This document shows positions 1,521-43,732 of a stretch of 64,000 bases of DNA, one piece after another. The notes beneath the pieces are model-generated. The model saw only the letters and a program-made list of their open reading frames with translations. It made no database searches and was not told the origin of the DNA. Positions within the stretch are counted from its first letter, which is position 1; every line of letters begins with the position of its first letter. The DNA comes from Escherichia phage vB_EcoM_VR26. The DNA lies in the sequence record NC_028957.1; one strand, written 5' to 3'. The position numbers were made by a program, and so were the translations under genes.

Positions 1521-1575
1521 TTGGTAACTCAGTATGGAATCATTATGCCTTAAAGCAGGGGGCTTGTATACCCCC
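1521..1575 (-). promoter_or_regulatory. early-promoter stem-loop element (PeSL-like) with conserved leader
   Basis: Reverse strand reads GTATAC, 17-18 nt, CATAAT, then leader GATTCCATACTGAGTTACCAAA; GGGGG/CCCCC stem-loop over the -35 region. Confidence 0.5.
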
Positions 1576-2047: not shown

Positions 2048-2097
2048 TTGGTAACTCAGTATGGGATAATTATACACTATCCCACCTGGAAGTAAAA
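2048..2097 (-). promoter_or_regulatory. early-promoter stem-loop element (PeSL-like)
   Basis: Reverse strand reads TTTTAC, 17 nt, TATAAT; inverted repeat GGGATA/TATCCC encloses the -10; same leader CCATACTGAGTTACCAAA as the other copies. Confidence 0.5.
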
Positions 2098-2567: not shown

Positions 2568-2615
2568 GTAACTCAGTATGGAATCATTATGCACCCGGTC
2601 AATTCGGATGTACAC
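2568..2615 (-). promoter_or_regulatory. early-promoter element with conserved leader
   Basis: Reverse strand reads GTGTAC, 18 nt, CATAAT, then GATTCCATACTGAGTTAC; near-identical to the copies at 1521 and 41079. Confidence 0.5.
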
Positions 2616-2652: not shown

Positions 2653-2680
2653 AAAAAAGCCCCAACCTTTCGGGAGGGGC
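2653..2680 (-). terminator. rho-independent terminator after the T5orf172-domain gene
   Basis: Reverse strand reads AGCCCCTCCCGAAAGGTTGGGGCT followed by TTTTTT. Confidence 0.6.
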
Positions 2681-3339
2681 TATACCTTGTCGGGGTTCCA
2701 CCTGCAAGGCAAGTGTTCAAAATAGGGTGCGCCGTGAATACGACCACGTTGAACAAAGCCGTCATCTACTTTCATAGCAAGCAGGATGAAGTCCATAAGA
2801 CCCTGATTGATTGGTATTTCAAATTTCGTAGATTTAATATCTAATTTTTTAACTATGGAACTTATGTCATGAAAGAAAAACCATTCACCATTTATATGGT
2901 CCTGATTATAAATGCTGTGCATATATTTTTCAAGTTCTACTGCATCCTGGGAATATCTAAATGATACTATTTTAAAACTTTTAAAAGGTGAAAATGTATT
3001 TGCTGTTATAGCTCTAACATCGGGTTCTATACTTCTTCCTATTTTATAATAATTAGGATTTGTAGTGTCTACCATTATGTATACAAAAGCTTGTCGATAA
3101 CTTTTTTCTATGTCAAATTCATCTTTAAATTTCAAAAGATTTAGGGCAGCAGTCCTACAAAATACTCTCCATATCGACGAGCGTTTAGCTTCGGTCATCG
3201 AAAAGAATTTTTTCTTATCTATGATTTTAAGAAAAGCCACCTTTTCAATTAGTTCTTGTGTTATTTCAAAATTACCATGGTATATTAATCCAGCTTTTAT
3301 AGCCAAATTAATTTGGTCCCAGTCTACATCACTTCTCAT
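2680..3339 (-). CDS. T5orf172-type GIY-YIG domain protein
   Basis: 219 aa; C-terminal half carries FVYIMVD...YYKIGRS ... ELEKYMHS...HINGEWFFF, which matches the T5orf172/GIY-YIG pattern as I recall it; N-terminal ~90 aa unassigned. Confidence 0.55.
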   Translation of the reverse strand: MRSDVDWDQINLAIKAGLIYHGNFEITQELIEKVAFLKIIDKKKFFSMTEAKRSSIWRVFCRTAALNLLKFKDEFDIEKSYRQAFVYIMVDTTNPNYYKIGRSIEPDVRAITANTFSPFKSFKIVSFRYSQDAVELEKYMHSIYNQDHINGEWFFFHDISSIVKKLDIKSTKFEIPINQGLMDFILLAMKVDDGFVQRGRIHGAPYFEHLPCRWNPDKV

Positions 3340-39169: not shown

Positions 39170-40729
39170 ATGAAAAAGAATGCATTAGTTCAAAAATGGT
39201 CCGCTCTGCTGGAAAACGAAGCTCTTCCTGAAATCGTTGGTGCTTCTAAACAAGCTATCATCGCTAAAATCTTTGAAAACCAGGAACAAGATATCCTGAC
39301 CGCTCCTGAATACCGTGACGAAAAAATCTCCGAAGCATTTGGTTCTTTCCTGACTGAAGCTGAAATCGGTGGTGACCATGGTTATGATGCTACCAATATC
39401 GCGGCTGGCCAGACCTCTGGTGCAGTAACTCAGATTGGGCCGGCAGTTATGGGTATGGTTCGTCGTGCTATCCCACATCTGATTGCGTTTGATATTTGTG
39501 GCGTACAGCCTCTGAACAACCCGACTGGCCAGGTATTTGCCCTGCGTGCAGTTTACGGTAAAGACCCTGTAGCTGCTGGTGCTAAAGAAGCTTTCCACCC
39601 GATGTATGCTCCGAACGCTATGTTCTCCGGTCAGGGCGCTGCTGAAGCTTTCGAAGCTCTGGCTGCAAGCAAAGTTCTTACCGTTGGTAAAATTTATTCT
39701 CACTTCTTCGAAGCAACCGGTTCCGCACACTACCAGGCTGTTGAAGCTGTAACCGTTGATGCCGCCGCTACTGATGCTGCTAAACTTGACGCTGAAGTTA
39801 CCAAACTGCTCGAAGCTGGTAAGCTGGCAGAAATCGCTGAAGGTATGGCTACCTCTATCGCCGAACTGCAGGAAGGTTTCAACGGTTCTCAGGATAACCC
39901 GTGGAACGAAATGGGCTTCCGCATCGATAAACAAGTTATCGAAGCTAAATCCCGTCAGCTGAAAGCAAGCTACTCTATCGAACTGGCACAGGACCTGCGC
40001 GCTGTTCACGGTATGGATGCTGATGCCGAATTGAGTGGTATTCTGGCTACTGAAATTATGCTGGAAATCAACCGCGAAGTTATCGATTGGATTAACTACT
40101 CCGCACAGGTTGGTAAATCTGGTATGACCAACACCGTTGGCGCTAAAGCTGGTGTGTTTGACTTCCAGGACCCAATTGATATCCGTGGCGCTCGTTGGGC
40201 TGGTGAAAGCTTCAAAGCTTTACTGTTCCAGATTGATAAAGAAGCCGCTGAAATCGCTCGTCAGACCGGTCGTGGTGCAGGTAACTTCATCATCGCTTCC
40301 CGTAACGTAGTTAACGTACTGGCTGCAGTTGATACCTCCGTATCTTATGCTGCTCAGGGTCTGGGTAAAGGTTTCAACGTTGACACCACTAAAGCTGTGT
40401 TCGCTGGTGTTCTGGGTGGCAAATACCGTGTCTATATCGACCAGTATGCTCGCGCAGATTACTTCACCATCGGTTACAAAGGCGCTAACGAAATGGATGC
40501 TGGTATCTACTACGCACCATATGTTGCACTGACCCCGCTGCGTGGCTCTGACCCGAAAAACTTCCAGCCAGTTATGGGCTTCAAAACCCGTTACGGTATC
40601 GGTATTAACCCGTTCGCTGACCCGGCAGCTCAGGCTCCGACCAAGCGTATTCAAAACGGCATGCCGGACATCGTTAACAGCCTCGGCTTGAACGGTTACT
40701 TCCGCCGCGTATATGTTAAAGGAATTTAA
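39170..40729 (+). CDS. 23: gp23 major capsid protein
   Basis: 519 aa; long identical stretches to T4 gp23 as recalled, e.g. GDHGY.ATNIAAGQTSGAVTQIGPAVMGMVRRAIP and YFRRVYVKGI. Confidence 0.97.
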   Translation: MKKNALVQKWSALLENEALPEIVGASKQAIIAKIFENQEQDILTAPEYRDEKISEAFGSFLTEAEIGGDHGYDATNIAAGQTSGAVTQIGPAVMGMVRRAIPHLIAFDICGVQPLNNPTGQVFALRAVYGKDPVAAGAKEAFHPMYAPNAMFSGQGAAEAFEALAASKVLTVGKIYSHFFEATGSAHYQAVEAVTVDAAATDAAKLDAEVTKLLEAGKLAEIAEGMATSIAELQEGFNGSQDNPWNEMGFRIDKQVIEAKSRQLKASYSIELAQDLRAVHGMDADAELSGILATEIMLEINREVIDWINYSAQVGKSGMTNTVGAKAGVFDFQDPIDIRGARWAGESFKALLFQIDKEAAEIARQTGRGAGNFIIASRNVVNVLAAVDTSVSYAAQGLGKGFNVDTTKAVFAGVLGGKYRVYIDQYARADYFTIGYKGANEMDAGIYYAPYVALTPLRGSDPKNFQPVMGFKTRYGIGINPFADPAAQAPTKRIQNGMPDIVNSLGLNGYFRRVYVKGI

Positions 40730-40750
40730 TCTTAGATTAAGTTAAATAAA

Positions 40751-40780
40751 AAGGGACCCTTGAGGTCCCTTTCTTGTTTT
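40751..40780 (+). terminator. rho-independent terminator after gene 23
   Basis: GGGACC CTTGA GGTCCC followed by a T-rich run. Confidence 0.7.
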
Positions 40781-41073
40781 CATACCATACCATTTAAATG
40801 AACTTCTACCCGGCGCTTGATGAGGTCTCTGAAATTAACACTGTTCTCTTGAAGTTTCAACCAGTTACCCGATTTGTCTCTGGTGTGAGTAGAATAATTA
40901 CCATTCCACCAAAAATCAGTGTCATATGCTAAGTTTTCATATTTTTTAACTAGTTTGTTCAGAGCATTACCATTAACACCATTTGGGTATTTGTTGACCA
41001 ATGCAACAACTTCAATTTCCAGATTTTTAAAGGTATTCCGAAGGAAAGATACTTTGTTCATTTTAGACTCCAT
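40780..41073 (-). CDS. hypothetical protein, early gene inserted between 23 and 24
   Basis: 97-aa reverse-strand ORF with its own early-promoter element; the in-frame ATG at 41061 has the better SD (GGAG). Confidence 0.5.
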   Translation of the reverse strand: MESKMNKVSFLRNTFKNLEIEVVALVNKYPNGVNGNALNKLVKKYENLAYDTDFWWNGNYSTHTRDKSGNWLKLQENSVNFRDLIKRRVEVHLNGMV

Positions 41074-41078
41074 TGTTT

Positions 41079-41127
41079 GGTAACTCAGTATGAAATCATT
41101 ATGTCTTATCTTAATCGGGTTGTAAAC
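41079..41127 (-). promoter_or_regulatory. early-promoter element with conserved leader
   Basis: Reverse strand reads GTTTAC, 18 nt, CATAAT, then GATTTCATACTGAGTTACCAAA. Confidence 0.55.
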
Positions 41128-41133
41128 AACTTT

Positions 41134-41141
41134 TATAAATA
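41134..41141 (+). promoter_or_regulatory. late promoter TATAAATA for gene 24
   Basis: Exact TATAAATA about 27 nt upstream of the gene 24 ATG. Confidence 0.65.
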
Positions 41142-41167
41142 AAGTATATCACAAAAGGAAAGCGCAA

Positions 41168-42448
41168 ATGGCAAAGATTAACAAATTACTGCGCGAGTCA
41201 ACTACCACTACCAGCAACTCCTTGGGCCGCCCGAATCTTGTTGCTTTGACCCGTGCTACAACCAAATTGATTTACCGCGATATTATCGCTGAACAACGTA
41301 CTAACCAGCCAGTTGCTGCGCTGTACGGTGTTAAATATCTTACTCCTGATAATGAATTCAGTTTCCAGACTGGTGCTACTTATGGTGGTGAAGTTGGTTC
41401 TAAAGACCGTGAAACAATTCCGGAATTTACAACCCCAACTCAGGCCGTAGCTAAAGGTGGATACATTAAATTCCAGAATATCGTTTATAAAGCTCTGGTT
41501 GATAATCCATTTGCATCGACCACAGAAACAGTGTTATCTGATGTTCTGCAAGAAGGTCTTGTTGCATTAACTATTCGTTTAGTTCCTGATGCTGCACACA
41601 CCGAAAAATTTGAAGCTGGTGATGTTGAAATTAGTAACGCCGTGTTCCAGGTTAATAAATGGAATGCTCCTGTTAAATCCCGTAAATTGAAAACTGCATT
41701 AACTGTTGAGCTTGCTCAGGATATGGAAGCAAATGGCTTTAATGCTCCTGCATTCCTGGAAGACCTGCTTGCTACTATTATGGCAGATGAAATTAACAAA
41801 GATGTTCTTCAGTCTCTTATTACCGTTTCCAAGCGTTATAAAGTAACTGGCGTTTCTGACAATGGCACCATCGATTTAACATATGATGCAGCTCCAGAAG
41901 GTGCACGTAAACTGTACGAACTGGTTTGTGAAATGAACTCTGAAATTCAGAAAACTACATCTTACTCTGGTACATTCGTTGTTGCCTCAAGTCGTGTGGC
42001 TGCGATGCTCGCCGGTTCCGGTTGGTTGAAACATAAACCTGAAGATGAACAATGGCTCCCGGAAACCGCGTATGGTTATTTGATTAATGGTCTTCCTGTA
42101 TTCTGTGATGTTAACAGCCCATTGGATTATGTGACTGTTGGTGTTAAAGAGAATTATGGTGGTAACGAGGTCGTGGGCTCAATTTTCTATGCTCCTTATA
42201 CAGAAGGCCTGGACTTAGATGATGAAGAGCATGTAGGCGCGTTTAAGGTCATTGTGGACCCAGACAGCTTGCAGCCATCTATCTCCCTGATGGTTCGATA
42301 TGCACTTTCAGCTAACCCTTACACCGTTGCTAAAGACGACAAAGAAGCTCGTATTATCGATGCAACTAATATGGATTTAATGGCTGGCCAGAGCAACATG
42401 TCTTATCTGCTCGGTGTTAAACTTCCACCAATCATTTATGAGGCGTAA
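41168..42448 (+). CDS. 24: gp24 capsid vertex protein
   Basis: 426 aa; N-terminus MAKINKLLRESTTTTSNSLGRPNLVALTRATTKLIY close to T4 gp24. Confidence 0.9.
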   Translation: MAKINKLLRESTTTTSNSLGRPNLVALTRATTKLIYRDIIAEQRTNQPVAALYGVKYLTPDNEFSFQTGATYGGEVGSKDRETIPEFTTPTQAVAKGGYIKFQNIVYKALVDNPFASTTETVLSDVLQEGLVALTIRLVPDAAHTEKFEAGDVEISNAVFQVNKWNAPVKSRKLKTALTVELAQDMEANGFNAPAFLEDLLATIMADEINKDVLQSLITVSKRYKVTGVSDNGTIDLTYDAAPEGARKLYELVCEMNSEIQKTTSYSGTFVVASSRVAAMLAGSGWLKHKPEDEQWLPETAYGYLINGLPVFCDVNSPLDYVTVGVKENYGGNEVVGSIFYAPYTEGLDLDDEEHVGAFKVIVDPDSLQPSISLMVRYALSANPYTVAKDDKEARIIDATNMDLMAGQSNMSYLLGVKLPPIIYEA

Positions 42449-43732
42449 ATGCAAAAGATTAACGCACTAATTCACGAATCAACATTAACGGCGGCCAACC
42501 AGGTCGCCCGTCCTAATTTGCTTTCTTATACTCGAGCTACGAATAAACGAATTTTTAAAGCTCTCGTGGCCGAACAGAAAACTACTCAGCCAGTTGCAGC
42601 GCTGTATGGCGTTCGTGTTCTGAACCCAGATGATAAAATGACTTATCTTGGTGGAGCAACGTTTGCCGGTCAAATTGGTATGTTCGAGCGTAAGAATATT
42701 CCAGAATTTACGAACAAAGACGAAGCTTATGCAGTCGGCGATATGTTCCAGTTTGAAAGCATTGTATTCAAAGCTTTGGAAGCTTCTCCTTTTGCCGGGA
42801 CCCTCGAAACTGATTTGGGTGAAGTTATTTCTGAAGCCATTGCGGCTGGCCATATAAGAATGATGTCAGATGCGGCTTTCACTGATAAATTTGAACAAGG
42901 ACATCCTGAAATTGCTGAAGCCGGTTTCCGTATCGATAAATGGCAGACTGAAGTTAAATCCAGAAAACTGAAAACCTCTTTAACCGTTGAGCTTGCGCAA
43001 GACCTGGAAGCAAATGGTTTCGACGCAACAGATTTTATTGATAATATCCTTGGCATTCAAATGGCAGAGGAAATTAATAAGGACGTACTGCAATCTTTAA
43101 TTACCGTAAGTTCACGTTTTAAAGTCCAGGGTGTTTCCGAAAAAGGTGTACTTAATCTTACTGATGCCGCTTATGATAATGCTCAGGACCGTGCTCGAAC
43201 TCTGTATTATTATATGTGCGAAATGAATTCCGCAGTTCAACGTCAGACTTCGTTCGCTGGTACATATGCAGTCGCTTCTTCCCGTTGTGCAGCTATTTTA
43301 GCCGCTTCTGGCTGGGTTGAGAAAAAGGAAGACCAAGATGAATTGGCCTATGGTGTTCTGAAGAACGGTTTGCCACTTTATGCAGATATGAATAGCCCGT
43401 GCGATTATGTTATTGTTGGTGTAAATGCTGATATGGGTGAAGGCCAGACGGTCGCATCTTTGTATTATGCGCCTTATACGGAAGGTCTTAGTGAAGTTGA
43501 TGATGAGGGTGACACCTCGGTTGGGGAATTCAAGGTTATTGTTGACCCTGAAAGTTTACAGCCTACAGTTGCATTGTTAGCTCGTTATGCACTGACTGCG
43601 AACCCTTATACCGTTGCTAAAGACGATAAAGAAGCTCGCATTATTGATGGGGCTGATATGGATAAGATGGCTAACCAAAGTCAATTGAGTTCTTATCTTG
43701 GTGTTAAACTTCCACCACTGGAAAAAGAATAA
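42449..43732 (+). CDS. gp24 paralog, second vertex-protein homolog
   Basis: 427 aa; clearly homologous to the upstream gp24 (shared RPNL...TRAT, KSRKLKT.LTVELAQD.EANGF, ANPYTVAKDDKEARIID) but diverged. Confidence 0.85.
   Translation: MQKINALIHESTLTAANQVARPNLLSYTRATNKRIFKALVAEQKTTQPVAALYGVRVLNPDDKMTYLGGATFAGQIGMFERKNIPEFTNKDEAYAVGDMFQFESIVFKALEASPFAGTLETDLGEVISEAIAAGHIRMMSDAAFTDKFEQGHPEIAEAGFRIDKWQTEVKSRKLKTSLTVELAQDLEANGFDATDFIDNILGIQMAEEINKDVLQSLITVSSRFKVQGVSEKGVLNLTDAAYDNAQDRARTLYYYMCEMNSAVQRQTSFAGTYAVASSRCAAILAASGWVEKKEDQDELAYGVLKNGLPLYADMNSPCDYVIVGVNADMGEGQTVASLYYAPYTEGLSEVDDEGDTSVGEFKVIVDPESLQPTVALLARYALTANPYTVAKDDKEARIIDGADMDKMANQSQLSSYLGVKLPPLEKE

Follow-up and report, generated by a model that had tools for sequence, protein, structure and literature searches.

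Results

An antisense gene lies between capsid genes 23 and 24

The window analysed here is a 64,000-nt stretch of the genome of Escherichia phage vB_EcoM_VR26, a T4-like coliphage of the genus Gaprivervirus. It contains the major capsid gene 23 and the capsid vertex gene 24a, and the gap between them is occupied by an open reading frame (ORF) that runs antisense to both capsid genes and, in its maximal form, spans 40780-41073 on the minus strand and encodes 97 aa. An earlier reading of these letters, made without database searches (hereafter the sequence-only reading), had placed a reverse-strand 97-aa ORF between a gene 23 terminator and a gene 24 late promoter, and this arrangement is indeed present (Table 1). 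The 701 bases around the gap are 99.0% identical to phage VR20. Gene 24 is itself present in tandem duplicate, at 41168-42448 and 42449-43732 on the plus strand, with copies that are 58% identical in protein; the same tandem arrangement occurs in JS98 (24a/24b), in VR20 and in the uncultured contigs L018 and L022, and the Mosigvirus and Tequatrovirus examined carry a single copy.

Table 1. Coordinates of the features of the 23–24 slot and of the repeated −10/leader module in the window.
Feature	Position	Strand	Basis or remark
Gene 23, major capsid protein, left flank of slot	39170..40729	+	519-aa ORF; gp23 in the annotated, 99%-identical VR20 record
Putative bidirectional intrinsic terminator for gene 23 late mRNA and antisense early mRNA	40748..40774	.	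Function predicted from the hairpin
CDS of 93-aa basic protein, phrog_6003	40780..41061	-	Stop codon 40780-40782; identical to VR26 AVV66_gp250
Predicted 30-nt 5′ leader	41062..41091	-	Shine-Dalgarno GGAG 41071-41068; start at ~41091 predicted from the −10 position
Invariant 13-mer CATACTGAGTTAC at the predicted transcription start	41080..41092	-	Part of the genome-wide early promoter-leader module
Gap copy of −10/leader module	41080-41102	-	Exact match
−10 hexamer CATAAT	41098..41103	-	Promoter search
−35 element GTTTACA, T4 early-promoter type	41121..41127	-	Common to JS98, Mosigvirus, RB69 and the TH15 endonuclease allele
Gene 24 late promoter TATAAATA	41134..41141	+	Sequence read directly; 26 nt upstream of gene 24 ATG 41168
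Gene 24a, capsid vertex protein I, right flank of slot	41168..42448	+	VR20 annotation
Second copy of −10/leader module	1524..1546	-	Exact match; upstream of 101-aa ORF 1197-1502
Third copy of −10/leader module	2051..2073	-	Exact match; upstream of 146-aa ORF, ATG at 2026
Fourth copy of −10/leader module	2568..2590	-	Exact match; upstream of 141-aa ORF 2110-2535

Translation of the gap ORF probably starts at the ATG at 41061-41059, which gives a protein of 93 aa rather than 97. We favour this start because a GGAG lies 6 nt upstream of it, because every homologue begins M-N/T/K-K, because orthologues in VR20, SP18 and others are annotated at 282 nt, and because the PHROG profile alignment begins at residue 5 of the 97-aa ORF.

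The gap ORF is a real gene. Its product matches phrog_6003 over the full length of the profile (E = 4.7e-49, residues 5-94 against profile positions 1-90 of 90), tblastn finds homologues in 236 phage records, many phages encode full-length homologues of 83-93 aa, and a dN/dS of 0.17-0.26 within the genus indicates purifying selection. One entry, P0006, looks like an assembly chimera. AlphaFold, run with a 21-sequence alignment, returned a confident model (pLDDT 93.6, pTM 0.79) with helices at residues 3-24, 31-48 and 77-91 and a β-hairpin at 52-71. The protein is basic (pI about 9.6), as is its family (pI 9.2-10, with one member at 8.0 and one truncated-alignment member at 10.1), and across the family an N-G-N loop is invariant, along with invariant F6, K3 and Q71.

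Searches for a function returned little. The protein has no match in Pfam (E ≤ 1), NCBIfam, PADLOC or the sequences of the PDB, fold searches retrieved generic helical bundles only, and nothing among its sequence or fold matches is a nuclease or carries a GIY-YIG catalytic domain. An exhaustive HMM search recovered few relatives; its matches of 772-1834 aa are immunoglobulin, cadherin and zinc-finger repeat proteins in which weak repeated matches sum up, and we rejected them as spurious. The protein and its annotated orthologues in VR26, VR7, VR20, SP18, JS98 and RB69 are named in databases as hypothetical proteins only. Two other orthologue names, ‘glycosyl hydrolase family 25’ (EAWsc9, PQ341120.1) and ‘NADPH-dependent curcumin reductase CurA’ (JGI, P0009), have no profile support and look like mis-annotations. 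The first of these labels had prompted us to consider the WWNGNYS...GNW segment as a cell-wall-binding repeat; this idea was dropped, as it finds no support in Pfam and the motif is missing from Mosigvirus-type alleles.

The gap unit has early-type signals back to back with a late promoter

The only sigma-70-like site within 40000-42000 lies directly upstream of the gap ORF and points to it: TTTACA, a 17-nt spacer and CATAAT at 41126..41098 on the minus strand, with 10 of 12 positions matching. Its −35 box agrees with the T4 early consensus GTTTAC (PMC1524935), and the A/T-rich stretch TTTATTTATAAAAG lies upstream of it, so that the site has every part of a T4-type early promoter. The gene 24 late promoter lies 6 nt past the −35 box on the opposite strand, within the A/T-rich DNA where an UP element of the early promoter would be placed, and the two promoters stand back to back. 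An overlapping pair of this kind, early Pe:109605(-) and late Pl:109573(+), has been predicted in RB69 (Nolan et al. 2006, PMC1524935 supplement). Literature searches on Gaprivervirus, Dhakavirus and Mosigvirus found no usable transcript maps or accounts of the ORF (VR7, JS98).

At the other end of the unit, the hairpin beyond the stop codon has a T-run on each strand and gives terminator-like matches on both, and its RNA is predicted to fold at −17.0 kcal/mol on the minus and −15.9 kcal/mol on the plus strand (z about −3.7). The same hairpin caused the sub-threshold small-RNA matches that were all an Rfam scan of the region returned. The predicted leader folds no better than its shuffles, and the four leaders of this type in the window are likewise without structure. 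Nor is there a stem-loop at the gap promoter: no inverted repeat occurs in 41040-41170, and the DNA fold has an energy of −1.4 kcal/mol (z +0.47).

The −10 and leader belong to a repeated module

The sequence-only reading had also linked this early-promoter element and leader to the genes near 1500 and 2500, and the link holds for the −10 and leader. The sequence ATAATNNNNNCATACTGAGTTAC has four exact matches in the 64 kb against a chance expectation of 0.08, all on the minus strand, and the motif ATAAT-N5-CATACTGAGTTAC likewise has four copies and no more. Aligned, the four upstream regions are conserved from the −10 through the leader and Shine-Dalgarno site to the ATG context, with the spacer between −35 and −10 free to vary. 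Only this −10/leader part is repeated: the whole gap promoter (30 nt, ≤3 mismatches) is unique in the window, and its −35 box reads GTTTACA, as in JS98 and Mosigvirus, in contrast to the GTGTACA typical of the module. The ORFs near 1500-2600 encode proteins that are unrelated to the gap protein, with no similarity detected.

Beyond the window, the module occurs at 10-13 places per Gaprivervirus genome and at 1-4 in Dhakavirus and others. We mapped 13-14 copies in VR20; every one lies on the early strand and precedes a small gene, and the genes concerned include srd, nrdC.8, 30.8, frd.1 and the gene preceding motA. Morganella phage MP1 (Gualtarvirus) has five copies within about 2 kb (L017:955-3039), which are annotated as promoters. 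In all 21 copies compared, drawn from VR20, this window and MP1, the ATAAT, an AT and CATACTGAGTTA are invariant and the spacer varies; that these elements are fixed across two distant genera suggests constraint on the initially transcribed sequence and not recent duplication. Several copies have stem-loops around the −35 or −10, including those near 1550 and 2080 (−8.8 and −9.2 kcal/mol). The lack of one at the gap copy fits the absence there of upstream co-directional transcription to block.

The early region around the other three copies showed further features. ORFs 1587-2026 and 2110-2535, both on the minus strand and without a Pfam match, are paralogous (42% identity over 73 aa, with a common C-terminal VQSYASNFRK), and each has its own module copy, as expected from duplication by recombination between modules. 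Just upstream of the module array lies a 219-aa ORF, 2680-3339 on the minus strand, with a T5orf172/MUG113 domain, followed by a terminator-like hairpin near 2650-2690.

The same gene is driven by different leaders in different genera. Its −10/leader is CATAATGATTYCATACTGAGTTA in all Gapriverviruses examined and TACTATAGACYTATCA in JS98, Mosigvirus and RB69, and no JS98-type leader was found elsewhere in the window. With Mosigvirus as the outgroup, the Gaprivervirus state is the derived one, which points to a later replacement of promoter and leader on a resident gene. A leader shared with the early region is thus no sign that promoter and gene arrived from there together. A second stereotyped early promoter-leader type, TACTAT/TATTAT followed by AGACCTATCAA, occurs in JS98, Mosigvirus and the unrelated contig L020 (3268-3340), and lies upstream of the ORF in L001, L002 and L020, which suggests that more than one family of such modules is found among T4-like phages.

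The slot is older than the genera that share it

We next consider the gap in relatives. The ORF is present in 30 of the 32 Gaprivervirus records matched, at 89-99% nucleotide identity; after removal of GenBank/RefSeq duplicates, the 30 records represent about 25 distinct phages. The same antisense position is filled in Dhakavirus JS98 (orf173, 62% aa identity), in Mosigvirus Shf125875 (36% aa identity), in SP18 and UPEC01, and in two uncultured T4-like phages. In RB69 the orthologue is a pseudogene, split by a frameshift and annotated as ORF188c and ORF189c (L008 9292-9532, minus strand), with its promoter intact. The string TTTATTTATAAA(A/G)(G/A)T(T/G)GT(T/G)TACA, made up of the late-promoter complement and then the −35 box, is kept in JS98, Mosigvirus Shf125875, RB69 and uncultured relatives. 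The presence of ORF, −35 box and late promoter at the same place in Gaprivervirus, Dhakavirus and Mosigvirus indicates that the placement predates these genera. On this comparison, the Gaprivervirus unit is an old accessory cassette, already annotated in relatives, and not a recent insertion. Its −10/leader and its terminator both differ from those of the JS98 and Mosigvirus copies.

Divergence of the ORF ranks in the same order as that of its flanks. Compared with the window, JS98 shows identities of 97% for gp23, 90-94% for gp24 and 62% for the ORF, and Mosigvirus shows 84%, 70% and 36%, respectively. The ORF has a dN some 3-7 times that of gp24 in both comparisons, and rapid vertical evolution, instead of exchange, could account for part of its divergence.

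Slot content differs among relatives and has probably been exchanged

Gaprivervirus contains three alleles of the gap: the ORF, an endonuclease gene and an empty gap. In TH57 the gap holds a terminator and a late promoter only. In TH15 it holds a minus-strand gene for a 219-aa GIY-YIG protein with a SegE_GIY-YIG match (L006 1669-2328), and the shared sequence extends through GTTTACA, with divergence setting in directly beyond it. Close relatives thus differ by insertion, deletion or replacement, with the breakpoint of the TH15 allele at the promoter motif, and TH15 and TH57 have a terminator in common that is unlike the one in the window. The TH15 endonuclease gene combines the conserved −35 GTTTACA with a TATAAT of its own, which together make an early-type promoter; none could be recognised for T4 segD, which occupies this site in T4. 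In TH57 the junction lies within the late-promoter motif (L007 1625-1712), which therefore has the sequence AATAAATA and not TATAAATA, and the TH57 terminator is unidirectional, CAGGGACTCTTCGGAGTCCC plus a T-run.

Outside the genus, T4 fills this gap with segD, which is likewise antisense, and the gap is short and empty in most Tequatroviruses examined and in many Klebsiella T4-like phages. One Tequatrovirus, 310Ecol104PP, contains a cassette 88-99% identical to that of JS98, between flanks with identities of 60-78% for gp24 and 80-90% for gp23; judged by this mismatch, a JS98-type cassette appears to have been transferred into this phage. Its ORF is disrupted by a ~10-nt deletion and a 10-nt duplication (L004 3001-3261), and its promoter is intact. 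The uncultured contig L022 has JS98/VR7-like flanks (gp23 91-93% and gp24a/b 90-94% aa identity to the window and JS98) around an ORF with 29% identity to that of the window and 62% to the Mosigvirus allele, on what is a single metagenomic contig that could be chimeric. A 60% homologue, P0016, with a JS98-like −10/leader lies at a different locus, beside tail genes, and more distant homologues were found in unrelated phages, within arrays of small early ORFs. The patterns in TH57, TH15, 310Ecol104PP, L022 and P0016 indicate a unit that moves and swaps as a cassette, and the swapping seems to have taken place over long timescales, mostly as replacement at a fixed slot.

Discussion

Our results are best explained by a monocistronic early unit that encodes a non-essential accessory protein and is housed in the 23–24 gap, an old slot whose content can be exchanged, an interpretation that we consider likely. 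Right after infection, host sigma-70 RNA polymerase would initiate at the T4-type early promoter and transcribe leftwards, antisense to the late genes, to yield a monocistronic mRNA of ~320-350 nt, whose 30-nt leader would lack structure and include the Shine-Dalgarno sequence GGAG. The transcript would end at the hairpin that is also predicted to terminate the gene 23 mRNA, and through this common bidirectional terminator, early and late transcription would not collide. The gene 24 late promoter, set on the other strand in the upstream A/T-rich DNA of the early promoter, would be used later. RegB-type inactivation of the gap mRNA is possible, given the GGAG in its Shine-Dalgarno site and the presence of regB in the genus (VR20_112).

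The small basic protein made from this mRNA would be dispensable, since its gene is broken in RB69 and 310Ecol104PP and absent from TH57, TH15 and T4, and it would probably bind a host or phage macromolecule. More specifically, we tentatively suggest, as a possibility and by inference only, that it is a small binder serving host takeover or counter-defence, the class to which early ORFans of T4 typically belong. Slot content would be exchanged or lost by homologous recombination, with crossovers in the conserved ends of genes 23 and 24 and in the promoter itself, and in the Gapriverviruses the −10/leader would have been replaced by the stereotyped early promoter-leader module of the genus.

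A more ambitious reading couples two proposals: that CATACTGAGTTA at +1 is a functional RNA or initial-transcribed-sequence signal for ~13 co-regulated early genes, and that the slot holds interchangeable alleles of a counter-defence or host-takeover protein. The signal may serve as a 5′ end recognised by a phage factor, as a determinant of promoter escape or stability, or as a translational enhancer; alternatively, the invariant CATACTGAGTTA is a recombination scar only. The states of the slot, comprising two deep allele classes, the empty gap and the endonuclease, may be maintained by host-dependent selection. Taken jointly, we regard these two proposals as rather improbable.

The location itself might instead be what is selected, with the protein or transcript serving the capsid module, for example by modulating gene 23/24 expression, acting in head assembly or countering a capsid-sensing host defence, and the gene kept beside gene 23 for this reason. 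Retention of the slot across at least four lineages and two deep allele classes would fit such a role, as would the DNA shared by early and late promoters. We nevertheless think it unlikely: the promoter is of the early type, its transcripts would run away from gene 24 and end short of gene 23, the neighbours of homologues in unrelated phages are arrayed small early ORFs or tail genes and not capsid genes, and the gene is lost or broken in RB69, TH57, TH15, 310Ecol104PP, T4 and most Tequatroviruses with viability kept.

The unit could also be a recent arrival, a promoter-plus-gene cassette copied or moved from the early region near 1500-2600 into the capsid operon. The sequence-only reading had proposed a cassette moved into that operon from the early-promoter element and leader common to the genes near 1500 and 2500. 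The −10/leader is identical to those near 1500, 2050 and 2580, and the two Gaprivervirus records of 32 without the ORF might be taken to agree. It had also named the observation that would speak against its proposal, namely the same ORF and promoter at this position in most relatives, and for a recent arrival this is what the comparison of the 23–24 region across T4-like phages returned: the ORF and −35 box are found in 30 of 32 Gaprivervirus records and again in Dhakavirus and Mosigvirus, and the late-promoter arrangement recurs in the three genera and in uncultured relatives. The gap ORF is, moreover, dissimilar to the ORFs near 1500-2600, relatives drive it from a different −10/leader, and its −35 is not the module-typical GTGTACA. 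What survives of the proposal is a self-contained early-type unit in a plastic slot; a recent move, and arrival of the gene together with its leader, we judge very improbable. It is scarcely credible that the ORF is an artefact, or what decay has left of a homing endonuclease gene like segD, because despite its small size, its lack of a Pfam match and the antisense GIY-YIG genes in this gap in T4 and TH15, it is under purifying selection, has a confident compact fold and full-length homologues (83-93 aa) across many phages, and bears no likeness to GIY-YIG or any other nuclease.

Preferring the old exchangeable slot, we see its importance as modest. It offers a clean example of an early accessory gene kept inside the most conserved late structural block of T4-like phages, and shows a slot refilled by recombination at conserved flanks and promoter sequences. 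The natural variants of the gap within one genus, with ORF, empty or with endonuclease, provide near-isogenic material for testing the function of the 93-aa family. The promoter-leader module is a candidate strong, portable early expression element and may mark an unrecognised early regulon.

Among known systems, the morons of lambdoid phages are autonomous promoter-gene-terminator units between late genes that are dispensable, patchily distributed and typically expressed from the prophage. The gap unit resembles them in having its own promoter and terminator and a patchy presence among collinear genomes, and differs in belonging to a strictly lytic phage and in its link to early lytic expression. 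The model that comes closest is that of PeSL (promoter-early stem-loop), or mobile regulatory, cassettes described for T4-type phages by Arbiol et al. (2010, PMC2839356) and Comeau et al. (2014, PMC4122927), in which a few such promoters lie inside virion modules and adjoin genes of unknown function. Both have a strong, stereotyped early promoter of sigma-70 type that recurs immediately before small ORFans, and in both the copies are tied to insertion, deletion and replacement differences between close relatives with a crossover in the promoter. Unlike PeSL cassettes, the gap copy has no stem-loop that could act as terminator or attenuator, and conservation here reaches into the transcribed leader (12 invariant nt at +1) with a variable −35/−10 spacer.

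Free-standing homing endonuclease genes in the 23/24 gap, T4 segD among them (Edgell et al. 2010, PMC2988022), are a further parallel. Like segD, the gap ORF is a non-essential antisense insert in the same gap between two essential capsid genes, and a Seg-like gene takes its place in TH15; unlike segD, it encodes no nuclease domain, is 93 aa long against about 220 aa, and has a clear promoter of its own. Annotated orthologues, VR26 AVV66_gp250, VR7 ORF190c, VR20_187, SP18 gp189, JS98 orf173 and RB69 ORF188c/189c, are the same gene at the same position with aa identities from 100% to about 36%, and the RB69 early promoter Pe:109605 had been predicted earlier at the same site (PMC1524935). The gap unit is thus nothing categorically new, as the gene and, in RB69, the promoter are already in public annotation. 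Two features go slightly beyond the literature consulted: an invariant transcribed leader common to distant genera, and discordance between ORF allele and flanks at a fixed slot.
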